The notes beneath the pieces are model-generated. The model searched no databases. It was not told the origin of the DNA and saw nothing but the letters and a program-made list of their open reading frames with translations. From Candidatus Omnitrophota bacterium (lineage in GTDB: Bacteria > Omnitrophota > Gorgyraeia > Zapsychrales > Fredricksoniimonadaceae), in NCBI GenBank assembly GCA_903901225.1, contig CAIUQE010000037.1:39885-103884 (forward strand): 64,000 nt of DNA, in the 5' to 3' direction. Shown piece after piece: positions 5,719 to 24,790 of the stretch (the stretch's first letter is position 1; each line of letters begins with the position of its first letter). Both the position numbers and the translations under genes were made by a program.

Positions 5719-7422
5719 ATGCTTGAATCACTTACCATAAAGAACTTCGGCATCATCGACCAGGTCGCCCTCGAGCTTTCCCCTCAGCTTAATATCATGA
5801 CCGGCGAAACAGGCGCGGGGAAATCCATCCTCATTGACGCGCTGCGCTTCTGCCTGGGCGAACGGTTCCAATCCAGTTACCTGCGCGACGACAATGCGCC
5901 ATGCACCGTTGAAGCCGTTTTCCGGCTTTCGCCACAACTTCTCAAGGCATTGCCCTTGCTCGAAGACTTCCCTTCCGAAGATGGCGTAACTATCATCCAG
6001 CGCAGTGTGAGCGCTGACGGCAAGAACCGCGTCAAGCTCAACGGCCTTTCAACCACTGTCGCGCAATTAAAAGAGATCGGTGATACGCTCATCGATTTTC
6101 ATGGCCCCCACGACCATCAGCAATTACTGGCCGAGCACCATCATCTGGAGATCATTGACGCTCTGACCGACCTTAAAGATGTCCGGGCGGAATACGCCCC
6201 TTTATACCAGGACTACCTCCAGGCCCAGGAAAAACTGCGGCATTTGACCGAACTGGCCCAAACCCGTGAACGCGACCTGGATCTATTGACCCATCAGGTC
6301 AAGGAACTGGAACAAGTCCCCCTTGACGAAGAGTCTTTTGAAGCCTTGCAACGCGACCATGTCAAGATCAGCAATGCGTCTAAACTTTATGAAAACATCT
6401 CCCTGGCGGTGGATTGCCTCGAGAACGATGAGGCTGGTGCGAATGCCACGCTCGGCCGCGCTTTCAAGCCTCTTCAAGCCCTGACCCGCATTGATGAGAA
6501 GGCATCTGAATTTGTCGACACTCTCGCTGCCGTCCAGGAACAGTCCGCCGCCCTCGCCGCCAGGCTCAAGGACTATTCCGACTCGCTGTCATTCGATCCC
6601 GGGTTTGCTGAGGGGATCAATGAAAAATTCGACATTTATCACCAGATCCAGCGCAAATACGGCCCGACACTCAAAGACGCGCAACTTTTTTATACCCAGG
6701 CCGCCGAGAAACTCGCCCTGCTGAGCGACTACGAACACAACACCGAGGTCATTCGCGAAGAGATCAAGGACAAGGAAGACACACTGTCCAAACTGGCCCA
6801 GACCATTTCCCTGCGCCGCAAAAAAAGCGCCGGTCTACTCAAACAAACCATTGAAAAAGAACTTCAGGAACTTGGCTTTAAAGCGGTCATTTTTGAAGCC
6901 CATGTTAACAAGAGCTCCCTGGGGCCTTCGGGGGCCGATACCGTCACATTCTTTATCAGCACCAACGCGGGTGAAGCCCTTAAACCGCTGGCAGAGATCA
7001 TTTCTTCGGGTGAAGCGGCACGCGTCATGCTGGCCGTCAAACGGGCCCTGATGAAGGTCGACCCGGTGCCTGTGCTCATTTTTGATGAAGTTGACGCGCA
7101 GATCGGCGGCCGGCTAGGCACCGTCATCGGCACAAAACTCAGCGAGATCGCGGCCCACCGGCAGGTCATCCTTATCACCCACTTGCCACAAATCGCCGCG
7201 TTCGCCCAGACACATTTTAAAATATCCAAAGTTGTTGAAAAAGGACGGACAAAGACCACGGTAACCCCCATAACCGGCCAGGACAGGGTCAATGAGCTGG
7301 CTCATATGATGGCCGGTGACACCATGACCGGCACGGCGCTGAAACATGCCGAAGAAATGCTCAGGAACGTGGATCCTGCTGTCACGGCCACGGCGACAAA
7401 ATCAAAAAAAGGACGCCTCTGA
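5719..7422 (+). CDS. recN: DNA repair protein RecN
   Basis: N-terminal MLESLTIKNFGII...MTGETGAGKSIL Walker A, coiled-coil middle, C-terminal SMC-like signature; 567 aa. Confidence 0.9.
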   Translation: MLESLTIKNFGIIDQVALELSPQLNIMTGETGAGKSILIDALRFCLGERFQSSYLRDDNAPCTVEAVFRLSPQLLKALPLLEDFPSEDGVTIIQRSVSADGKNRVKLNGLSTTVAQLKEIGDTLIDFHGPHDHQQLLAEHHHLEIIDALTDLKDVRAEYAPLYQDYLQAQEKLRHLTELAQTRERDLDLLTHQVKELEQVPLDEESFEALQRDHVKISNASKLYENISLAVDCLENDEAGANATLGRAFKPLQALTRIDEKASEFVDTLAAVQEQSAALAARLKDYSDSLSFDPGFAEGINEKFDIYHQIQRKYGPTLKDAQLFYTQAAEKLALLSDYEHNTEVIREEIKDKEDTLSKLAQTISLRRKKSAGLLKQTIEKELQELGFKAVIFEAHVNKSSLGPSGADTVTFFISTNAGEALKPLAEIISSGEAARVMLAVKRALMKVDPVPVLIFDEVDAQIGGRLGTVIGTKLSEIAAHRQVILITHLPQIAAFAQTHFKISKVVEKGRTKTTVTPITGQDRVNELAHMMAGDTMTGTALKHAEEMLRNVDPAVTATATKSKKGRL

Positions 7423-18788: not shown

Positions 18789-20009
18789 TTAATAGTTCTG
18801 CTCAAAATCCTGTTTGCCTCGTTCATCAAAACCCTTACGCTTGACCTTAACACCACCGAGGTATGTGTCAATGTAGATAAGGTTCCCGTTCTGCTGGAAT
18901 ATACGGGCATCGCCTTCCAATTTGCCGGCGACATAATTCTGCTCGCTGGACAACTCTCCCGTGCTATAAAAAGTTTTAGCGACGCCTGCCTGGATGCCGT
19001 TGACGATCTCCCACTGGCGCTTGATATTGCCACCCGGATAGAATTCCCTCATCTGGCCGTTCTGGCGGCCGCTAGCGTAAGTAACTTCCATCCAAAGCAC
19101 GCCGGATTCAATATACTCACGGGCCAAGCCCTGTTTTTCCCCGGCTTTATAGCTCCAGTCAAGCCATAACTTGCCGTTGGGATAATATTCCCTGCAACTG
19201 CCGTCTTTCTGCCCTTGCTTGTACATACATTCGCTTTTCACGACCGCATTCTCATAATACTCTTTAACGAAACCATTGTACTGATTGCCGGAGTATTCAG
19301 CATCCAGGGCCGGCCCCCCGCTGCGGAAGAACTTCTTGCCGGGACCGGAAATATCCCCGTCCTTAAAGGTCAGGACCCACTCATCCTTGCCATTATCATA
19401 AAACGTGCGGGATACGCCTGACTTTTGGCCATTCTCATAATTCCATACGGCCGAAAGCTGATGATCACCCTTGAATTCCCTGGTTTCACCATTGAGTTCA
19501 TTATCGCGGTAATGGATAATGCTGGTCAGGGCCCCGGACGGGCCGTATTCCCGGCTCTCGCCGTTAAGTTGCCCACGGGTAAATTCAAGCGTGTACTTCA
19601 ATGTTCCGTTCTCGTAGAAATATTTGCACAAGCCTTCCAAGGCATCGTAACGGAACGTCTCGACGCTCTTGGGACTGCCGTTCTCAAAAAATTCACGGGC
19701 AAGGCCATGCTGGACGCCATTGACGTAGTTTTTTTCGACGAACAAGGTCCCGTCGCTGTAATAGGACTTGTACAGCCCCTGCAGCAGGCCGTCTTTATAA
19801 GTCCCGACGCTCAATATCTTCCCGTCGGGATAATATTCACGAAAAGCGCCATTGAGCTTGTTATGCGCGTAAGTTTTTTCTGTCTTTACCCGGCCGTCAT
19901 CAAACAATTCTTTGGCCGTCCCATCCGGAAACTCCTGGGCGGATGACGGACGCGCGTAACACGCGGCGGCACAGAAAATAACAATGAAGACCGATACGAT
20001 TTTTTTCAA
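18789..20009 (-). CDS. secreted MORN-repeat protein (MORN_2 / YwqK-like repeats)
   Basis: Signal peptide, then about 14 repeats of the [FY]Y.NG.L......Y.G...G pattern. Confidence 0.6.
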   Translation of the reverse strand: MKKIVSVFIVIFCAAACYARPSSAQEFPDGTAKELFDDGRVKTEKTYAHNKLNGAFREYYPDGKILSVGTYKDGLLQGLYKSYYSDGTLFVEKNYVNGVQHGLAREFFENGSPKSVETFRYDALEGLCKYFYENGTLKYTLEFTRGQLNGESREYGPSGALTSIIHYRDNELNGETREFKGDHQLSAVWNYENGQKSGVSRTFYDNGKDEWVLTFKDGDISGPGKKFFRSGGPALDAEYSGNQYNGFVKEYYENAVVKSECMYKQGQKDGSCREYYPNGKLWLDWSYKAGEKQGLAREYIESGVLWMEVTYASGRQNGQMREFYPGGNIKRQWEIVNGIQAGVAKTFYSTGELSSEQNYVAGKLEGDARIFQQNGNLIYIDTYLGGVKVKRKGFDERGKQDFEQNY

Positions 20010-21041: not shown

Positions 21042-22028
21042 TTATTTATTTTTGTATAGAAGGATGTCCGCGCCTTCCAGTTCCAATACGAGGTTATTCT
21101 TGAGCGAGAGCCTCACACCGGCGGGGCCTGACACCGCTTTGACAAGGGCATCAATATTCTCGAATTCCAACGCGGCGCCGATACGGCGCAACGCCTCACG
21201 CCAGACGCGATACTGGAATGCCGGCGTGAGCGCGGCATACCTTTGGCGCGACAGCACGACCCCTTTGCTGGCTTTGCGCAGCACCCCCGGCAATTTCTTC
21301 ATGAACTCACTTTCAATATATTCATGATCAAACGCGGCGAGAATAGCCATCTCGGCAAGTTTTTTCTTTATGGCCGGAGCATAATTTTTGGCGATGTAAG
21401 GCAGAAGAGACCGCCTGATACGGTTGCGGAGAAAAAGATCGCTGGCATTGCTGGCATCCTCGACATGAGGGATACGCCGCGCGCGCAACAGGCCTTCCAG
21501 TTCACGGCGGTTGAACTCCAGCATGGGCCTTAAGAAAACAACCCCCGTGATCCGGCGTGAATAAAGGATGCTCCGCAGTCCGGCCAGCGATGCCCCGCGA
21601 AAAAGCCGCATCAGGACAGTTTCGGCAAGGTCATCCTGCGTGTGCCCCAGGACAACAGCCGCCGCCTTCAGGGAATGCGCGGTCCTGAGAAAAAAATCAA
21701 AACGTTTCTCCCGGGCGAATTCTTCAATGGAAACACCATCAGGCGGGCGGGCCTTGTTACGCTCCCAGGCGTATTCAAGGCCGAGTTCCCGTGCCATATT
21801 TTCGACAAAGACCCTGTCCCGGGCTGAGCCCTTGCGAAGGGCGTGATCGTAATGGGCTACGACGATGTCAAGCGCAAGCTCATGACGCAGGTCAAAAAGA
21901 AGATGCAACAACGCGGTTGAATCAATGCCGCCGGAGACGCCAACAAGGATGCGCGCGCCATATGGGATCACACTCAGGCGCAGTATCCTGTCTTGCAACG
22001 CTAGCGCGGCAACGGTTTTTTTTACCAT
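21042..22028 (-). CDS. tilS: tRNA(Ile)-lysidine synthetase
   Basis: PP-loop VGVSGGIDSTALLHLL and TilS substrate-binding region. Confidence 0.85.
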   Translation of the reverse strand: MVKKTVAALALQDRILRLSVIPYGARILVGVSGGIDSTALLHLLFDLRHELALDIVVAHYDHALRKGSARDRVFVENMARELGLEYAWERNKARPPDGVSIEEFAREKRFDFFLRTAHSLKAAAVVLGHTQDDLAETVLMRLFRGASLAGLRSILYSRRITGVVFLRPMLEFNRRELEGLLRARRIPHVEDASNASDLFLRNRIRRSLLPYIAKNYAPAIKKKLAEMAILAAFDHEYIESEFMKKLPGVLRKASKGVVLSRQRYAALTPAFQYRVWREALRRIGAALEFENIDALVKAVSGPAGVRLSLKNNLVLELEGADILLYKNK

Positions 22029-22573
22029 TCCCCCTGCATCCCCCTCATTTCATGGCGGGCTTCCTGATACGCCTTGCGCAGGTCCGGCGCGTATTTCATG
22101 TTGGGCGGGACAAGTTTGATGTTCGCGTAACCGAACCGCAGCAACTCGGCGTTAAGCAGTTTACCGTCGGGAAGAAAAACATAGGCTTCCACCAGCCCCT
22201 GGTCATTACGGCGCTGGGTGTCGAACTCAAGCCGCACGGCCTTGCCTTCGACGAGGGCCTTCGCGTAACGCATGGCTTCAACCTCGAAAGGGACCTCGGG
22301 AACTTCGTCGGGAATGATGAACCCGTGGACGTCACGTTTGACATCCACCTGTTTCGGAGGCCTGGGGCCCTTGATCCCGATCAGCGCGATCTTTTCATCA
22401 TCATCCAGAAGTATCCTGTCAACAGCCAGGACACGGGCGACCCGGATGCTCTGATATTTCACGGACGGGGCCAACAGGGGGTTCAGGTCCGCGGCCAGGA
22501 CCGGGGCCATGAAGGACGCCAACCCCAGCACAAAGAGGAACATCGACGGAAAAATTCTTTTTTGCATGGCCAT
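22022..22573 (-). CDS. secreted staphylococcal-nuclease-like (SNase/OB-fold) protein, active site possibly degenerate
   Basis: Signal peptide; VARVLAVDRILLDDDEKIALIGI...AYVFLPDGKLLNAELLRFGYA matches the SNase fold but DGDT and RxxGIDAPE are replaced (DDDE, IGIKGP); overlaps the tilS start by 7 nt. Confidence 0.45.
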   Translation of the reverse strand: MAMQKRIFPSMFLFVLGLASFMAPVLAADLNPLLAPSVKYQSIRVARVLAVDRILLDDDEKIALIGIKGPRPPKQVDVKRDVHGFIIPDEVPEVPFEVEAMRYAKALVEGKAVRLEFDTQRRNDQGLVEAYVFLPDGKLLNAELLRFGYANIKLVPPNMKYAPDLRKAYQEARHEMRGMQGEW

Positions 22574-22711: not shown

Positions 22712-22788
22712 TGGTGGCGGCGACTGGATTTAAACCAGTGACACAGCGGGTATGAACCGCTTGCTCTATCGGACTGAGCTACACCGCC
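22712..22788 (-). tRNA. tRNA with anticodon CAT (elongator Met or tRNA-Ile2/lysidine substrate), CCA encoded
   Basis: GGCGGTGTAGCTCAGTCCGATAGAGCAAGCGGTTCATACCCGCT...TGGTTTAAATCCAGTCGCCGCCACCA; G1-C72 paired (not initiator); D-loop A19 with T-loop U56 looks like covariation of the G19-C56 pair. Confidence 0.75.
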
Positions 22789-22813: not shown

Positions 22814-22842
22814 ATTATAAGGCAAACCCACCGGAAATTCAA
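22814..22842 (-). promoter_or_regulatory. sigma70-type promoter for tRNA(CAT): TTGAAT-17-TATAAT
   Basis: Perfect -10 TATAAT, -35 TTGAAT, 17-nt spacer, about 25 nt upstream of the tRNA 5' end. Confidence 0.5.
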
Positions 22843-22867
22843 GCAGGAAGATCAAAAATCCATGACC

Positions 22868-23173
22868 TTACCTGGTAAAAAAGATTATGAACAGCAAAAC
22901 AACGACAACAACAAGAGCCCCGATATAAAAATCGTTGTAGGCCAGAAGATCCCGCAGGCGCTCCTGGGGCGTATATGGAAATTTAACGGTTTCGGACGCC
23001 ACATGGCCGGAACTCTTCAGGCGCTGAATATCCTCGCGTTTGAAACGCAAGTACTGTTGCGCGATACGATAAGCCTGCAGCTTCTTCTCATCGACAAGCG
23101 ACATGATCCTGCCCTCGCTGACACCAAGGATCTGCCCCGCTTCTCGGACGGTCACATAGGGGTTGCCCGTCAT
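22868..23173 (-). CDS. membrane-anchored excisionase/MerR-type HTH (HTH_17-like) protein
   Basis: N-terminal VTVREAGQILGVSEGRIMSLVDEKKLQAYRI helix-turn-helix; C-terminal IGALVVVVVLLFIIFF TM helix; ATGA overlap with the upstream bactofilin gene. Confidence 0.5.
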   Translation of the reverse strand: MTGNPYVTVREAGQILGVSEGRIMSLVDEKKLQAYRIAQQYLRFKREDIQRLKSSGHVASETVKFPYTPQERLRDLLAYNDFYIGALVVVVVLLFIIFFTR

Positions 23174-23715
23174 TTAACGGCCCCTGCCGCGGCCCAATGG
23201 TCGATCTGCGCGCGCTCGAACTTCACGGATTCTCCTTCACGGGTCACGGGGATCTTGCCATTATTGACAAGTTCCCAGATGACACCTTCCTCGATCTCAA
23301 GGTAAGCCGCGAGATCCTTAATGGTGAACCAGTCACCCGCGGGAACATCATTGAGGGCCATATGGCACATGCCCTGGAAAACAGCGCCTTCCACCACATT
23401 GAGTTTGGGGGCGTGGATATCGCCCAACAGCACGGCGGACGGCATCAGAGTCAAAAGCTTGGTCGCGTGAACATGCCCTTTGACCTTGCCGGCAATAACA
23501 ACATAATCGCCCGTGATATCAGCCTCTACATTGGCGCGGCCACCGACGGTCAAAGACCCTCTCACATCGAGTTTTCCCGTGAATTGACCATTGATCCTAA
23601 GGTCAACAGGCTCCTTGAACGAAAGCGTTCCGTTCATTTCGGCGTTAAGCTCGATGAGGTTCAGGGAAGGTTCCGTGGCCGTTGCCTTGGCTGGTTTTTT
23701 CTCTCCGAAAGCCAT
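23170..23715 (-). CDS. bactofilin-domain protein fused to a C-terminal excisionase-type HTH domain
   Basis: Residues ~20-125 show the bactofilin beta-helix repeat (GTLSFKEPVDLRINGQFTGKLDVRGSLTVGG...VEADITGDYVVIAGKVKGHVHA...); C-terminal FTIKDLAAYLEIEEGVIWELVNNGKIPVTREG is HTH_17-like. Confidence 0.6.
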   Translation of the reverse strand: MAFGEKKPAKATATEPSLNLIELNAEMNGTLSFKEPVDLRINGQFTGKLDVRGSLTVGGRANVEADITGDYVVIAGKVKGHVHATKLLTLMPSAVLLGDIHAPKLNVVEGAVFQGMCHMALNDVPAGDWFTIKDLAAYLEIEEGVIWELVNNGKIPVTREGESVKFERAQIDHWAAAGAVK

Positions 23716-23757
23716 ACTTATCTCCCGATAATATTAATACCGTTCAAGAACCCACAT

Positions 23758-23786
23758 AGGATAACAAAAGGAAAGCTCGACGTCAA
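23758..23786 (-). promoter_or_regulatory. candidate promoter for the bactofilin-HTH operon (TTGACG-17-TATCCT)
   Basis: -35 overlaps the tsaD stop codon; about 45-nt leader with a GGGAG RBS. Confidence 0.3.
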
Positions 23787-24790
23787 TGAGAAGAACGTGA
23801 CGCTACATAAGCAAAACCGGCCACCATCGCCGCGTTATCCATGCACAGATCAAGCGACGGGAAATTAACATTGATCCCCGTTCCCTGTGCCAGGGAATGA
23901 AGCCTGGCCCGCAAACCACGGTTGGCCGCCACCCCCCCGCCCACAAGGAGCGTGCGGCATTTCCGTTTCAAGCAAGCCTGGATGCTCTTTTCCGCCAGAA
24001 CGGAAACAACGCTTTCCTGGAATCCCCGCGCGACTTGCGCGACAGAATAATCTTTGGCCCCGGCATGCTTGCGGACGTAATAAAGGACGGCGGTCTTGAC
24101 GCCGCTGAAGCTGAAATCATGCGTCCCGGCAAGCTCTGCCCTTGGGAACGTCACGGATCGGGGAACAACGCCGGCGGTGTGCGTCGCTTCCGCCTCGTGC
24201 GCCATCCTGTCGATGACAGGGCCGCCTGGATATTCCAGGCCGAGTATCCTCCCCACCTTGTCATAAGCCTCTCCGGCGGCATCGTCGCGCGTCTGCCCGA
24301 TCACCTTAAAATTCCTGAAATCCTTGATGGAAAAAAGGGTTGAGTGCCCGCCGGAAACAGCCAACCCTACCGCGGGCAGGGCCAGTTCGTCGTAGACAGT
24401 CGCGAAACGCGCGGCGCCACGGGAAACAAGATAATTCGCGTAAATATGCGCGTGGACATGGTTCACGTCAACCACCGGCTTTTTCAAGGCATACCCGAGT
24501 GAGTGCGCGAAGGTGATCCCCACCAAAAGCGATCCGATAAGCCCCGGCTTTTGCGTCACCGCCACCGCGTCAATATCCGCCAGTGTCAAGCCCGCGTCTT
24601 CAAGGGCTTTGGCGGTAACGATATTGATGTACTCCAGTTGCTTGCGGGAGGCGATCTCAGGGATGATCCCGCCGAATTTCTGATGCTCCTTGAGGCTCGT
24701 GGCAACGACATTGGAAAGAACCTCCCTGCCGTCGCGCACAATGCTGGCCGAGGTTTCATCGCAGGATGTCTCGATCCCCAGGATGTTCAT
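23783..24790 (-). CDS. tsaD: tRNA N6-adenosine threonylcarbamoyltransferase
   Basis: MNILGIETSCDETSASIV N-terminus and full-length Kae1/TsaD similarity. Confidence 0.9.
   Translation of the reverse strand: MNILGIETSCDETSASIVRDGREVLSNVVATSLKEHQKFGGIIPEIASRKQLEYINIVTAKALEDAGLTLADIDAVAVTQKPGLIGSLLVGITFAHSLGYALKKPVVDVNHVHAHIYANYLVSRGAARFATVYDELALPAVGLAVSGGHSTLFSIKDFRNFKVIGQTRDDAAGEAYDKVGRILGLEYPGGPVIDRMAHEAEATHTAGVVPRSVTFPRAELAGTHDFSFSGVKTAVLYYVRKHAGAKDYSVAQVARGFQESVVSVLAEKSIQACLKRKCRTLLVGGGVAANRGLRARLHSLAQGTGINVNFPSLDLCMDNAAMVAGFAYVASRSSH

Follow-up and report, generated by a model that had tools for sequence, protein, structure and literature searches.

A bactofilin fused to a winged helix and a tail-anchored winged-helix protein are encoded by a conserved gene pair of Omnitrophota

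Introduction

In the RodZ-MreB system, the cytoplasmic helix-turn-helix (HTH) domain of a bitopic membrane protein binds a cytoskeletal polymer rather than DNA. Here we describe a pair of overlapping genes, A and B, that brings an HTH fold together with a different polymer, bactofilin. The pair lies in a stretch of 64,000 nucleotides (nt) of a Candidatus Omnitrophota genome (contig CAIUQE010000037.1, positions 39,885 to 103,884), which we call the window. Gene A encodes a bactofilin with a C-terminal winged HTH, and gene B encodes the same kind of HTH followed by a single C-terminal transmembrane helix. Members of Omnitrophota are uncultivated or nearly so, and they are often ultra-small.

Several features of bactofilins are relevant here. 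Replacement of a phenylalanine at the C-terminal interface by arginine (F130 of Caulobacter crescentus BacA and F105 of the Thermus thermophilus bactofilin) blocks assembly. For the membrane-targeting sequence (MTS), whose consensus is MFSKKKK, the hydrophobic residues at the N terminus and two lysines are critical. Bactofilins typically end in C-terminal tails that are short, disordered, and poorly conserved, and that are often dispensable. PbpC, a bitopic client, binds the bactofilin core domain near the C-terminal interface, and when overproduced it can substitute for the bactofilin MTS. The recognition of clients by bactofilins has been described as poorly understood (PMC12448750).

Two further systems resemble the one described here. 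In Bacillus subtilis, the HTH protein BacR (YhbD, DUF4004) is encoded with the bactofilins BacE and BacF, which bind it and bring it to the membrane; in the bound state it no longer binds DNA (PMC13649987). RacA, which anchors the chromosome in B. subtilis, carries a small MerR/Xis-like winged helix on a scaffold or membrane anchor; it has a base-contacting arginine (a YpG contact) and a coiled coil that binds DivIVA.

In A-B, both the polymer and the fold are of known kinds; their combination in a pair of genes, kept across a phylum, is undescribed. Full-text searches found no literature that combines bactofilin with Omnitrophota. An earlier sequence-only reading of the window had held that a bactofilin-HTH fusion was undescribed, and we also found no description in the searchable full-text literature. 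The source databases name these proteins only "polymer-forming cytoskeletal protein" or "excisionase family DNA binding protein". We suggest, with a probability of roughly 40%, that A-B is an Omnitrophota-specific membrane bactofilin scaffold in which B is a bitopic partner, the winged helices mainly couple proteins, and B is the only plausible contact with DNA.

Results and Discussion

Gene A encodes a bactofilin with a folded C-terminal domain

The two-gene layout with its ATGA stop/start overlap, the bactofilin-then-HTH_17 order of the first gene, and the HTH-plus-membrane-helix composition of the second had all been proposed in the sequence-only reading, and they were borne out. Both open reading frames (ORFs) lie on the minus strand exactly as it gave them, and both profiles score above their Pfam cut-offs. 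The bactofilin profile PF04519 matches amino acids (aa) 20 to 117 of A with 83.6 bits (E value 1.2e-23; cut-off 27.9). In the AlphaFold2 (AF2) model, a confident β-helix spans residues 19 to 118 (predicted local distance difference test score above 90), and it is followed by a low-confidence linker (residues 120 to 127) and a winged helix (residues 129 to 177). The β-helix is right-handed, like those of BacA and the Thermus bactofilin. The motif GAVFQG of A aligns with GAFFQG and GAVFVG, the motifs that contain BacA F130 and Thermus F105, so the polymerization-interface phenylalanine of A is F113, which is at least 90% conserved in the family. The profile match, the predicted fold, and the interface residue all identify A as a bona fide bactofilin.

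The N terminus of A follows the pattern M-A-F-x-x-[KR]-x-x-x-[KR]. Among 107 sequences, M1 is present in 106, A2 in 102, and F3 in 103; position 6 is Lys or Arg in all 107, and position 10 in 102. This peptide is similar to the bactofilin MTS consensus but not identical with it, and A may bind the membrane through it. At its other end, A differs from the canonical bactofilins. In place of a short disordered tail, it has a folded and strongly conserved winged helix that begins only 3 to 10 residues after the C-terminal polymerization interface. The linker in the largest clade is about as short as "LED".

Both proteins carry winged helices of the excisionase type

The HTH_17 profile PF12728 (cut-off 27) matches residues 129 to 177 of A with 36.1 bits and residues 6 to 53 of B with 34.8 bits. 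The NCBIfam profile TIGR01764 ("excise"; cut-off 28.8) is also exceeded by both, with 33.4 bits for A and 30.2 bits for B. The secondary structure of the AF2 models has the order β-α-α-β-β-α in residues 129 to 177 of A and 6 to 55 of B. By profile and topology, both are bona fide HTH_17/excisionase-type winged helices, and the C-terminal segment of A is not a mere bactofilin tail. The two domains are homologous (hhalign probability 97.8%, E value 1e-12). However, BLASTP found no significant match between them, which indicates that they are not recent duplicates.

The closest solved relatives of the A domain in profile searches were RacA (E value 7e-4), BldC (2.8e-3), and the excisionase (Xis) of mycobacteriophage Pukovnik (5.6e-3). 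Searched against Protein Data Bank profiles, the B sequence matched Pukovnik Xis (Gp37 Xis, 6.4e-5), Tn916 Xis, and BldC. The top Foldseek matches of B were the RacA DNA-binding domain (5i44), Pukovnik Xis (4j2n), BldC (6ama/6amk), and RdfS (8dgl). Both winged helices are therefore RacA-like, by profile for A and by top structural match for B. Structural matches of the B domain also included a CbpM-CbpA complex (3ucs) and TniQ, which by our reading are cases in which the fold mediates protein contacts. Membership in the MAD1 defence family (NF047737) was considered and rejected. The matches reached 40.2 and 21.8 bits against an equivalog cut-off of 80, and the similarity is confined to the HTH.

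Gene B encodes a short tail-anchored protein with a conserved juxtamembrane motif

The AF2 model of B consists of the winged helix (residues 6 to 55), a linker, a short helix (residues 69 to 79), and a long hydrophobic helix (residues 81 to 99) that stops one residue short of the C terminus. The tail anchor has a 19-residue Kyte-Doolittle mean of 2.97, and the family median is 2.49. Across the family, 0 to 6 residues lie beyond the membrane helix, and B thus has no periplasmic domain.

The short helix comes directly before the membrane helix, and this juxtamembrane region is strongly conserved in the 68 sequences compared. Four residues (D75, N80, D81, and Y83) never vary, and E71, R72, and F82 reach at least 90% conservation. 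The membrane helix itself has an invariant L93, at least 90% conservation at L94 and F98, and Ile at position 97 in 61 of the 68. This conservation on both sides of the membrane boundary suggests that B is more than a passive anchor. We found 86 clusters of B homologs, nearly all of about 100 aa, apart from two 78-aa fragments and a few proteins of up to 132 aa. All the named clusters belong to Omnitrophota.

The pair is conserved across a phylum and under purifying selection

A search of about 5.8 billion proteins with A (E value of 1e-3 or less) gave 186 clusters. The 120 that were listed are all 169 to 190 aa long, and 112 of them have both domains in the precomputed Pfam column. So many clusters with both domains place the architecture far beyond chance. 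The organism names among the listed clusters were all Omnitrophota or Omnitrophica, except for one Elusimicrobia. A scan of one genome per Genome Taxonomy Database (GTDB) species found relatives in at least 151 genomes. Of the 80 loci listed, 46 are labeled Omnitrophota, Omnitrophica, or Omnitrophus, and 2 are labeled Elusimicrobia and Elulimicrobium. The remaining 32 carry the labels "uncultured Planctomycetales", "uncultured bacterium", or "bacterium", which are probably uninformative placeholders. More distant members were recovered by an exhaustive HMMER search of 1.84 billion representatives, which yielded some 25 to 30 full-length representatives with identities down to about 31%; these divergent members keep the winged helix. 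A profile built from them matched 1,340 clusters at an E value of 1e-10 or less, of which the best 120 all have both domains and every named one is Omnitrophota. The A-B pair offers a clade marker for Omnitrophota and a first handle on the cell biology of the phylum.

The order of the genes is also stable. A B ortholog follows A in all 85 loci inspected (84 related loci and the window), a count that includes two checked cases, one with B frameshifted in a homopolymer on a long-read contig and one with B 120 nt away. The frameshifted B (L032, about positions 6519 to 6830) lies in an A-run region of a 1.29-Mb contig and is probably an assembly error, not a pseudogene. In 79 of 82 loci, A is preceded by tsaD in the same orientation, and the order gatA-gatB-ctpA(S41)-PF04748-tsaD-A-B recurs in distant members. 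Of five divergent loci examined, four keep this upstream block and all five have a tail-anchored HTH gene downstream. B also follows A in divergent members, with 35 to 45% identity. The genes downstream of B vary by clade. In divergent clades, a gene for a small membrane protein of the MgtC family lies between tsaD and A (L085 4535-4972, L087 5504-5938, L088 5256-5927, and L089 5531-5965), and this insertion explains the tsaD-A gaps of 450 to 560 nt.

Every domain of the pair is under purifying selection. Compared with the closest relative, the ratio of nonsynonymous to synonymous substitution rates (dN/dS) is 0.044 for A (0.014 in the core and 0.14 in the HTH) and 0.075 for B. Together with the constant gene order and the housekeeping synteny, this shows that the pair is not part of a degenerate mobile element. 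The metagenome-assembled genome nDJH2bin18 (JADFXX01) contains two A-B loci of different clades (L013 and L026), with 67% and 57% identity to the A of the window. L026 has tsaD upstream, the short upstream flank of L013 resembles the 3' end of tsaD, and the coverage of the two contigs is similar. Either the bin is mixed or the duplication is genuine.

A and B are probably expressed together from their own promoter

The coding regions of A and B overlap by 4 or 1 nt in 54 of the 85 loci, and we infer translational coupling through the ATGA overlap. In the window, tsaD ends 67 nt upstream of A, and a candidate promoter lies upstream of A, in line with the sequence-only reading, which had given the pair its own promoter. 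A similar arrangement lies upstream of A in many relatives. The pattern TTGAC-N13-17-T.TG.TA(T/A) occurs within 160 nt upstream of the A start in 33 of the 84 related loci, compared with 0.02 in shuffled sequences, and the loci that have it are mainly those with tsaD directly before A. This recurrence points to a dedicated, conserved promoter of the sigma-70 type for A-B, with an extended -10 element. A and B are probably cotranscribed and translationally coupled. Plus-strand shadow ORFs (for example, 23197..23868, 223 aa, and 22862..23305, 147 aa) were set aside because the minus-strand genes hold the domain matches and the conservation.

The winged helices lack the residues that read the major groove

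The structure of BldC on DNA shows base contacts by K26 and R30 and backbone contacts by T27, T29, W31, and K33, all in the recognition helix, and the wing residues H46, R47, and R48 enter the minor groove. The mutation R30A abolishes DNA binding, and RacA uses the equivalent arginine (PMC5859096). In the HMMER alignment, the family consensus s-k-i-l-e-w stands opposite K-T-V-T-R-W of BldC and K-T-V-Q-R-W of RacA. We counted the residues at the BldC contact positions in 107 A and 68 B sequences. At the R30 position, A has Glu in 98 sequences and Asp in 6, so that 104 of the 107 are acidic. B has Asp in 28, Ser in 8, Ala in 7, Glu in 7, and Thr in 5. At the K26 position, A has mostly Pro (57) or Gly (31), and B has Gly (38) or Lys (28). 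At the T27 position, A has Ala (58) or Val (31), and B has Lys (57) or Arg (8). The W31 position is Leu in all 107 A sequences and in 61 of the B sequences. In the window, the R30 position corresponds to E148 of A and to position 25 of B. Neither protein keeps the set of major-groove reading residues (BldC K26, T27, and R30, and the RacA arginine).

The two domains also differ in charge. The HTH region of A has a net charge of -2 to -8 in 80 of 81 sequences, whereas the first 55 residues of B have a net charge of +1 to +6 in 77 of 81. Basic residues conserved in B are K22, R36, R43, K45, and R46. In A, the wing remains basic at two positions, with Lys or Arg at the R41 equivalent in 93 of the 107 sequences and at the R48 equivalent in 106.

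Judged from these residues, canonical sequence-specific major-groove reading appears to be lost in A, and it is probably lost in B. Non-specific or wing-mediated DNA binding by B is plausible. Direct DNA binding by the bactofilin fusion, which the sequence-only reading had proposed, is not supported, given the acidic R30 position, the Pro or Gly and Ala or Val at the K26 and T27 positions, and the net negative charge of the domain.

A proposed membrane scaffold with protein-coupling winged helices

We suggest that A would polymerize end to end through its bactofilin β-helix and form membrane-associated polymers. Each A subunit would display an acidic winged helix, attached by a short linker; this domain has the RacA/BldC/Xis fold but not the major-groove reading residues. 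B would be made in step with A through the ATGA overlap and inserted as a tail-anchored protein, with its basic winged helix toward the cytoplasm. There it would act as a bitopic partner of the A polymer, either a client or an anchor. In this scheme the winged helices would chiefly be protein-protein coupling modules. Any DNA held at the membrane would be bound through the basic domain and wing of B, and the polymer would make that binding multivalent.

The scaffold draws support from the conserved interface residue F113, the MTS-like N-terminal peptide of A, the tail anchor of B, the constant order and frequent overlap of the two genes, the purifying selection on every domain, the loss of the reading residues, and the opposite charges of the winged helices. 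Three precedents also count for it. The HTH fold binds protein elsewhere, as in CbpM-CbpA and TniQ. Bactofilins recruit bitopic clients such as PbpC (PMC12448750). They also sequester an operon-encoded HTH protein, BacR, at the membrane (PMC13649987). B differs from PbpC in that it lacks any periplasmic or enzymatic domain, is a winged-helix protein itself, and has a gene that overlaps that of the bactofilin. In function, RodZ offers the closest analogy to B. However, the HTH of RodZ is of the XRE type, RodZ also has a periplasmic domain, and the polymer it binds is formed by the actin homolog MreB, whereas B has an excisionase-type winged helix and no periplasmic domain, and its partner would be a bactofilin.

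We also looked for a coupling between the two proteins in their rates of evolution. Site-wise A-B covariation could not be used, since the positions that might form an interface either do not vary or divide by clade; a mirror-tree partial-correlation test was substituted for it. In this exploratory test (71 loci, distance matrices, controlled for tsaD), all pairs of A and B domains were positively correlated. The HTH of B correlated with the β-helix of A with a partial r of 0.64 (bootstrap confidence interval [CI] 0.57 to 0.72) and with the HTH of A with a partial r of 0.43 (CI 0.32 to 0.53), and the difference between β-helix and HTH was positive in 99.8% of bootstraps; however, these values are confounded by clade structure, and within one clade they fall to 0.25 and 0.14. 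The result gives a weak hint that the winged helix of B is coupled to the bactofilin core.

Apart from this confounding, four observations weigh against a scaffold with protein-coupling winged helices. The closest solved relatives of the domains are all DNA binders. Some of the BldC-contact wing residues are kept in A and in B (R36 and R43 of B), so wing-mediated or backbone DNA binding is possible even for A. Of 19 divergent A representatives, 11 have an acidic residue at the R30 position, but 3 have Arg or Lys there. Finally, a folded domain so near the C-terminal interface might hinder the polymerization of A.

If the scaffold with protein-coupling winged helices is correct, the locus would join RodZ and CbpM as a case in which an HTH fold has been turned to protein binding. 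A-B would then be a compact, genetically defined scaffold-client pair, kept across a phylum and directly testable.

Possible direct or non-canonical tethering of DNA

The sequence-only reading had proposed that the pair tethers DNA to a cytoskeletal filament and to the membrane. In its strongest form, both winged helices would bind DNA, the bactofilin polymer would present an array of such domains, B would add a link to the membrane, and the chromosome, for example its origin region, would be held at the membrane or pole in the manner of RacA-DivIVA. The relationship to RacA is a genuine precedent for a tether between a scaffold or membrane and DNA, because RacA is the best solved match of the A domain profile and the top Foldseek match of B, and this part of the proposal stands. 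BldC and Xis, which oligomerize on DNA, are the next-best relatives; the basic wing residues are kept in both proteins; and some divergent A proteins have Lys or Arg in the recognition helix. Myxococcus bactofilins organize chromosome segregation proteins (PMC5703909). However, the base-reading arginine that RacA and BldC depend on is replaced by acidic residues in A and mostly by Asp, Ser, Ala, Glu, or Thr in B, and the HTH of A is net acidic in all but one of the sequences. The anchors also differ, being a bactofilin domain and a transmembrane helix rather than a coiled coil. In addition, we found no ParA, ParB, or ParB-like (PadC) domain in A, B, or the conserved neighbors, and repeated candidate binding sites, for which no search was made, did not come to light. 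We therefore regard a direct nucleoid tether or segregation device as doubtful. If it were true, A would be the first case of a cytoskeletal polymer of bacteria joined directly to a DNA-binding fold.

In a variant of this reading, A-B could be a nucleotide-independent tether between nucleoid and membrane, in which the winged helices, displayed by the polymer in an ordered array, and B bind DNA non-canonically, through the wing or by shape, without a ParA-type ATPase or an adaptor. We consider this unlikely. It would mean a chromosome organization or segregation device that works without either of those components.

BldC, Xis, and RdfS resemble the two domains in HTH fold and size, and they make head-to-tail winged-helix contacts (PMC5859096; PMC11963761). 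However, they are free-standing DNA-architectural or recombination directionality factors, whereas A and B have no integrase partner, lack the key DNA-reading residues, and are fused to a polymer or a membrane anchor.

Less likely alternatives: a sequestered regulator or a mobile-element relic

A third alternative is a membrane-sequestered regulator with partner switching, like BacR. B or the HTH of A would regulate transcription, perhaps of its own operon, and the bactofilin polymer would keep the regulator off DNA until envelope stress or depolymerization. Both systems encode an HTH protein together with a bactofilin, and BacR provides a link between bactofilins and a DNA-binding fold (PMC13649987). 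The conserved promoter of A-B and the envelope-related genes nearby (ctpA and PF04748) count for such a regulator, and the opposite charges would let the acidic domain of A compete with DNA for the basic domain of B. However, BacR is a soluble DUF4004 protein of about 210 aa from Bacillota, whereas here one HTH is fused to the bactofilin and the other is in an integral membrane protein of a different phylum. Neither A nor B matched PF13171 (DUF4004) at an E value of 1 or less. B is tail anchored and has no obvious release mechanism or sensor domain, and the recognition helices lack the usual specificity residues. By visual and regular-expression inspection, without formal motif discovery, the 84 upstream regions yielded promoter elements only, and no operator-like repeat was conserved among them. 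We regard this alternative as improbable.

The idea that A-B is the remnant of a mobile element integrated next to a tRNA, with the bactofilin fusion a lineage-specific accident, is suggested by the excisionase-type HTH (TIGR01764), by the nearby tRNA(CAT), and by one subclade that has, after B, a gene with a phage-integrase SAM-like domain and next to it SSB, but it is effectively refuted by the gatAB-ctpA-PF04748-tsaD-A-B synteny across deep divergence, by dN/dS values of 0.04 to 0.14, by the position of the pair 5' of the tRNA and not at its 3' end, by the lack of att-like repeats or a compositional anomaly around the pair, and by searches that found no match in phage and viral-contig collections and no full-length match on 72,556 plasmids. 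The plasmid-positioning role raised in the sequence-only reading is likewise unsupported, since the locus is core chromosomal. Nor does the pair fit the functional class of excisionases and recombination directionality factors, which act with a recombinase and att sites in a mobile element; its synteny is with housekeeping genes.

The subclade just mentioned comprises 9 of the 85 loci (L003 2057-2704 on the plus strand, L022, L023, L025, L027, L028, L033, L035, and L051). The protein encoded after B has 211 to 219 aa, and its gene overlaps B by 1 to 4 nt in all of these loci except L035, where it begins 6 nt downstream. The SAM-like domain (PF13102; 26.8 bits, with a cut-off of 22.3) is the only one in this protein; a catalytic domain is absent, and SSB comes next in the contigs inspected. 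This protein may be a third, lineage-specific component that pairs the Xis-like HTH with an integrase N-terminal domain.

Layout of the locus and neighboring genes

The coordinates of the pair, its domains and motifs, and the adjoining tRNA gene are collected in Table 1.

Table 1. Features of the A-B locus (positions in the window)
Feature	Position	Strand	Basis or remark
Gene A: bactofilin and winged HTH, 181 aa	23170..23715	(-)	ORF; Pfam PF04519 and PF12728; AF2 two-domain model
Gene B: winged HTH and C-terminal tail anchor, 101 aa	22868..23173	(-)	ORF; HTH_17; AF2 model
ATGA stop/start overlap of A and B	23170..23173	(-)	TGA stop of A, 23172-23170; ATG of B, 23173-23171
N-terminal peptide MAFGEKKPAK of A, membrane-targeting-like	23686..23715	(-)	Column counts, 107 sequences
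Bactofilin β-helix domain of A, aa 20-117	23365..23658	(-)	PF04519
Acidic winged HTH of A, aa 129-177	23185..23331	(-)	HTH_17; TIGR01764; AF2 topology
Basic winged HTH of B, aa 6-53	23015..23158	(-)	HTH_17; Foldseek; PDB profile search
Juxtamembrane motif ER.RD....YNDFY of B, aa 71-83	22925..22963	(-)	Conservation among 68 sequences
C-terminal transmembrane tail anchor of B, aa 82-100	22874..22930	(-)	Hydropathy; AF2
Candidate sigma-70 promoter of A-B, TTGACG-17-TATCCT with upstream TG	23758..23786	(-)	Consensus scan
tRNA(CAT)	22712-22788	(-)	80 nt downstream of B

Several neighboring genes have a cell-envelope flavor. Proteins with SPOR and with TPR/PDZ domains flank the pair in some divergent lineages (L086 3289-4946, L085 5984-6985, and L087 6895-7869), and ctpA and PF04748 lie upstream. 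The commonest gene downstream of the pair encodes a staphylococcal-nuclease-like protein (a cluster of 28 ORFs). In the window, this gene occupies positions 22022-22573 on the minus strand and matches PF00565 with 37.5 bits. Its product has a hydrophobic N terminus, MAMQKRIFPSMFLFVLGLASFMAPVLA, and is therefore probably exported. Farther along, a 406-aa protein that consists largely of MORN_2 repeats (137 bits) is encoded at 18789-20009 on the minus strand, between a family-2 glycosyltransferase gene and ftsH. A related contig has a 401-aa ORF without a recorded Pfam match in the slot between tilS and ftsH.

The block is also rich in tRNA-related genes, namely gatA and gatB (by synteny), tsaD, and tilS. 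The sequence-only reading was correct that the pair adjoins a tRNA gene. This tRNA(CAT) lies about 680 nt upstream of tilS (21042-22028, minus strand), on the same strand, and has its own promoter-like site, TTGAAT-17-TATAAT, at 22842..22814. Its paired G1-C72 end indicates that it is not an initiator tRNA, and it could be tRNA-Ile2 (CAU), a substrate of TilS, rather than tRNA-Met.

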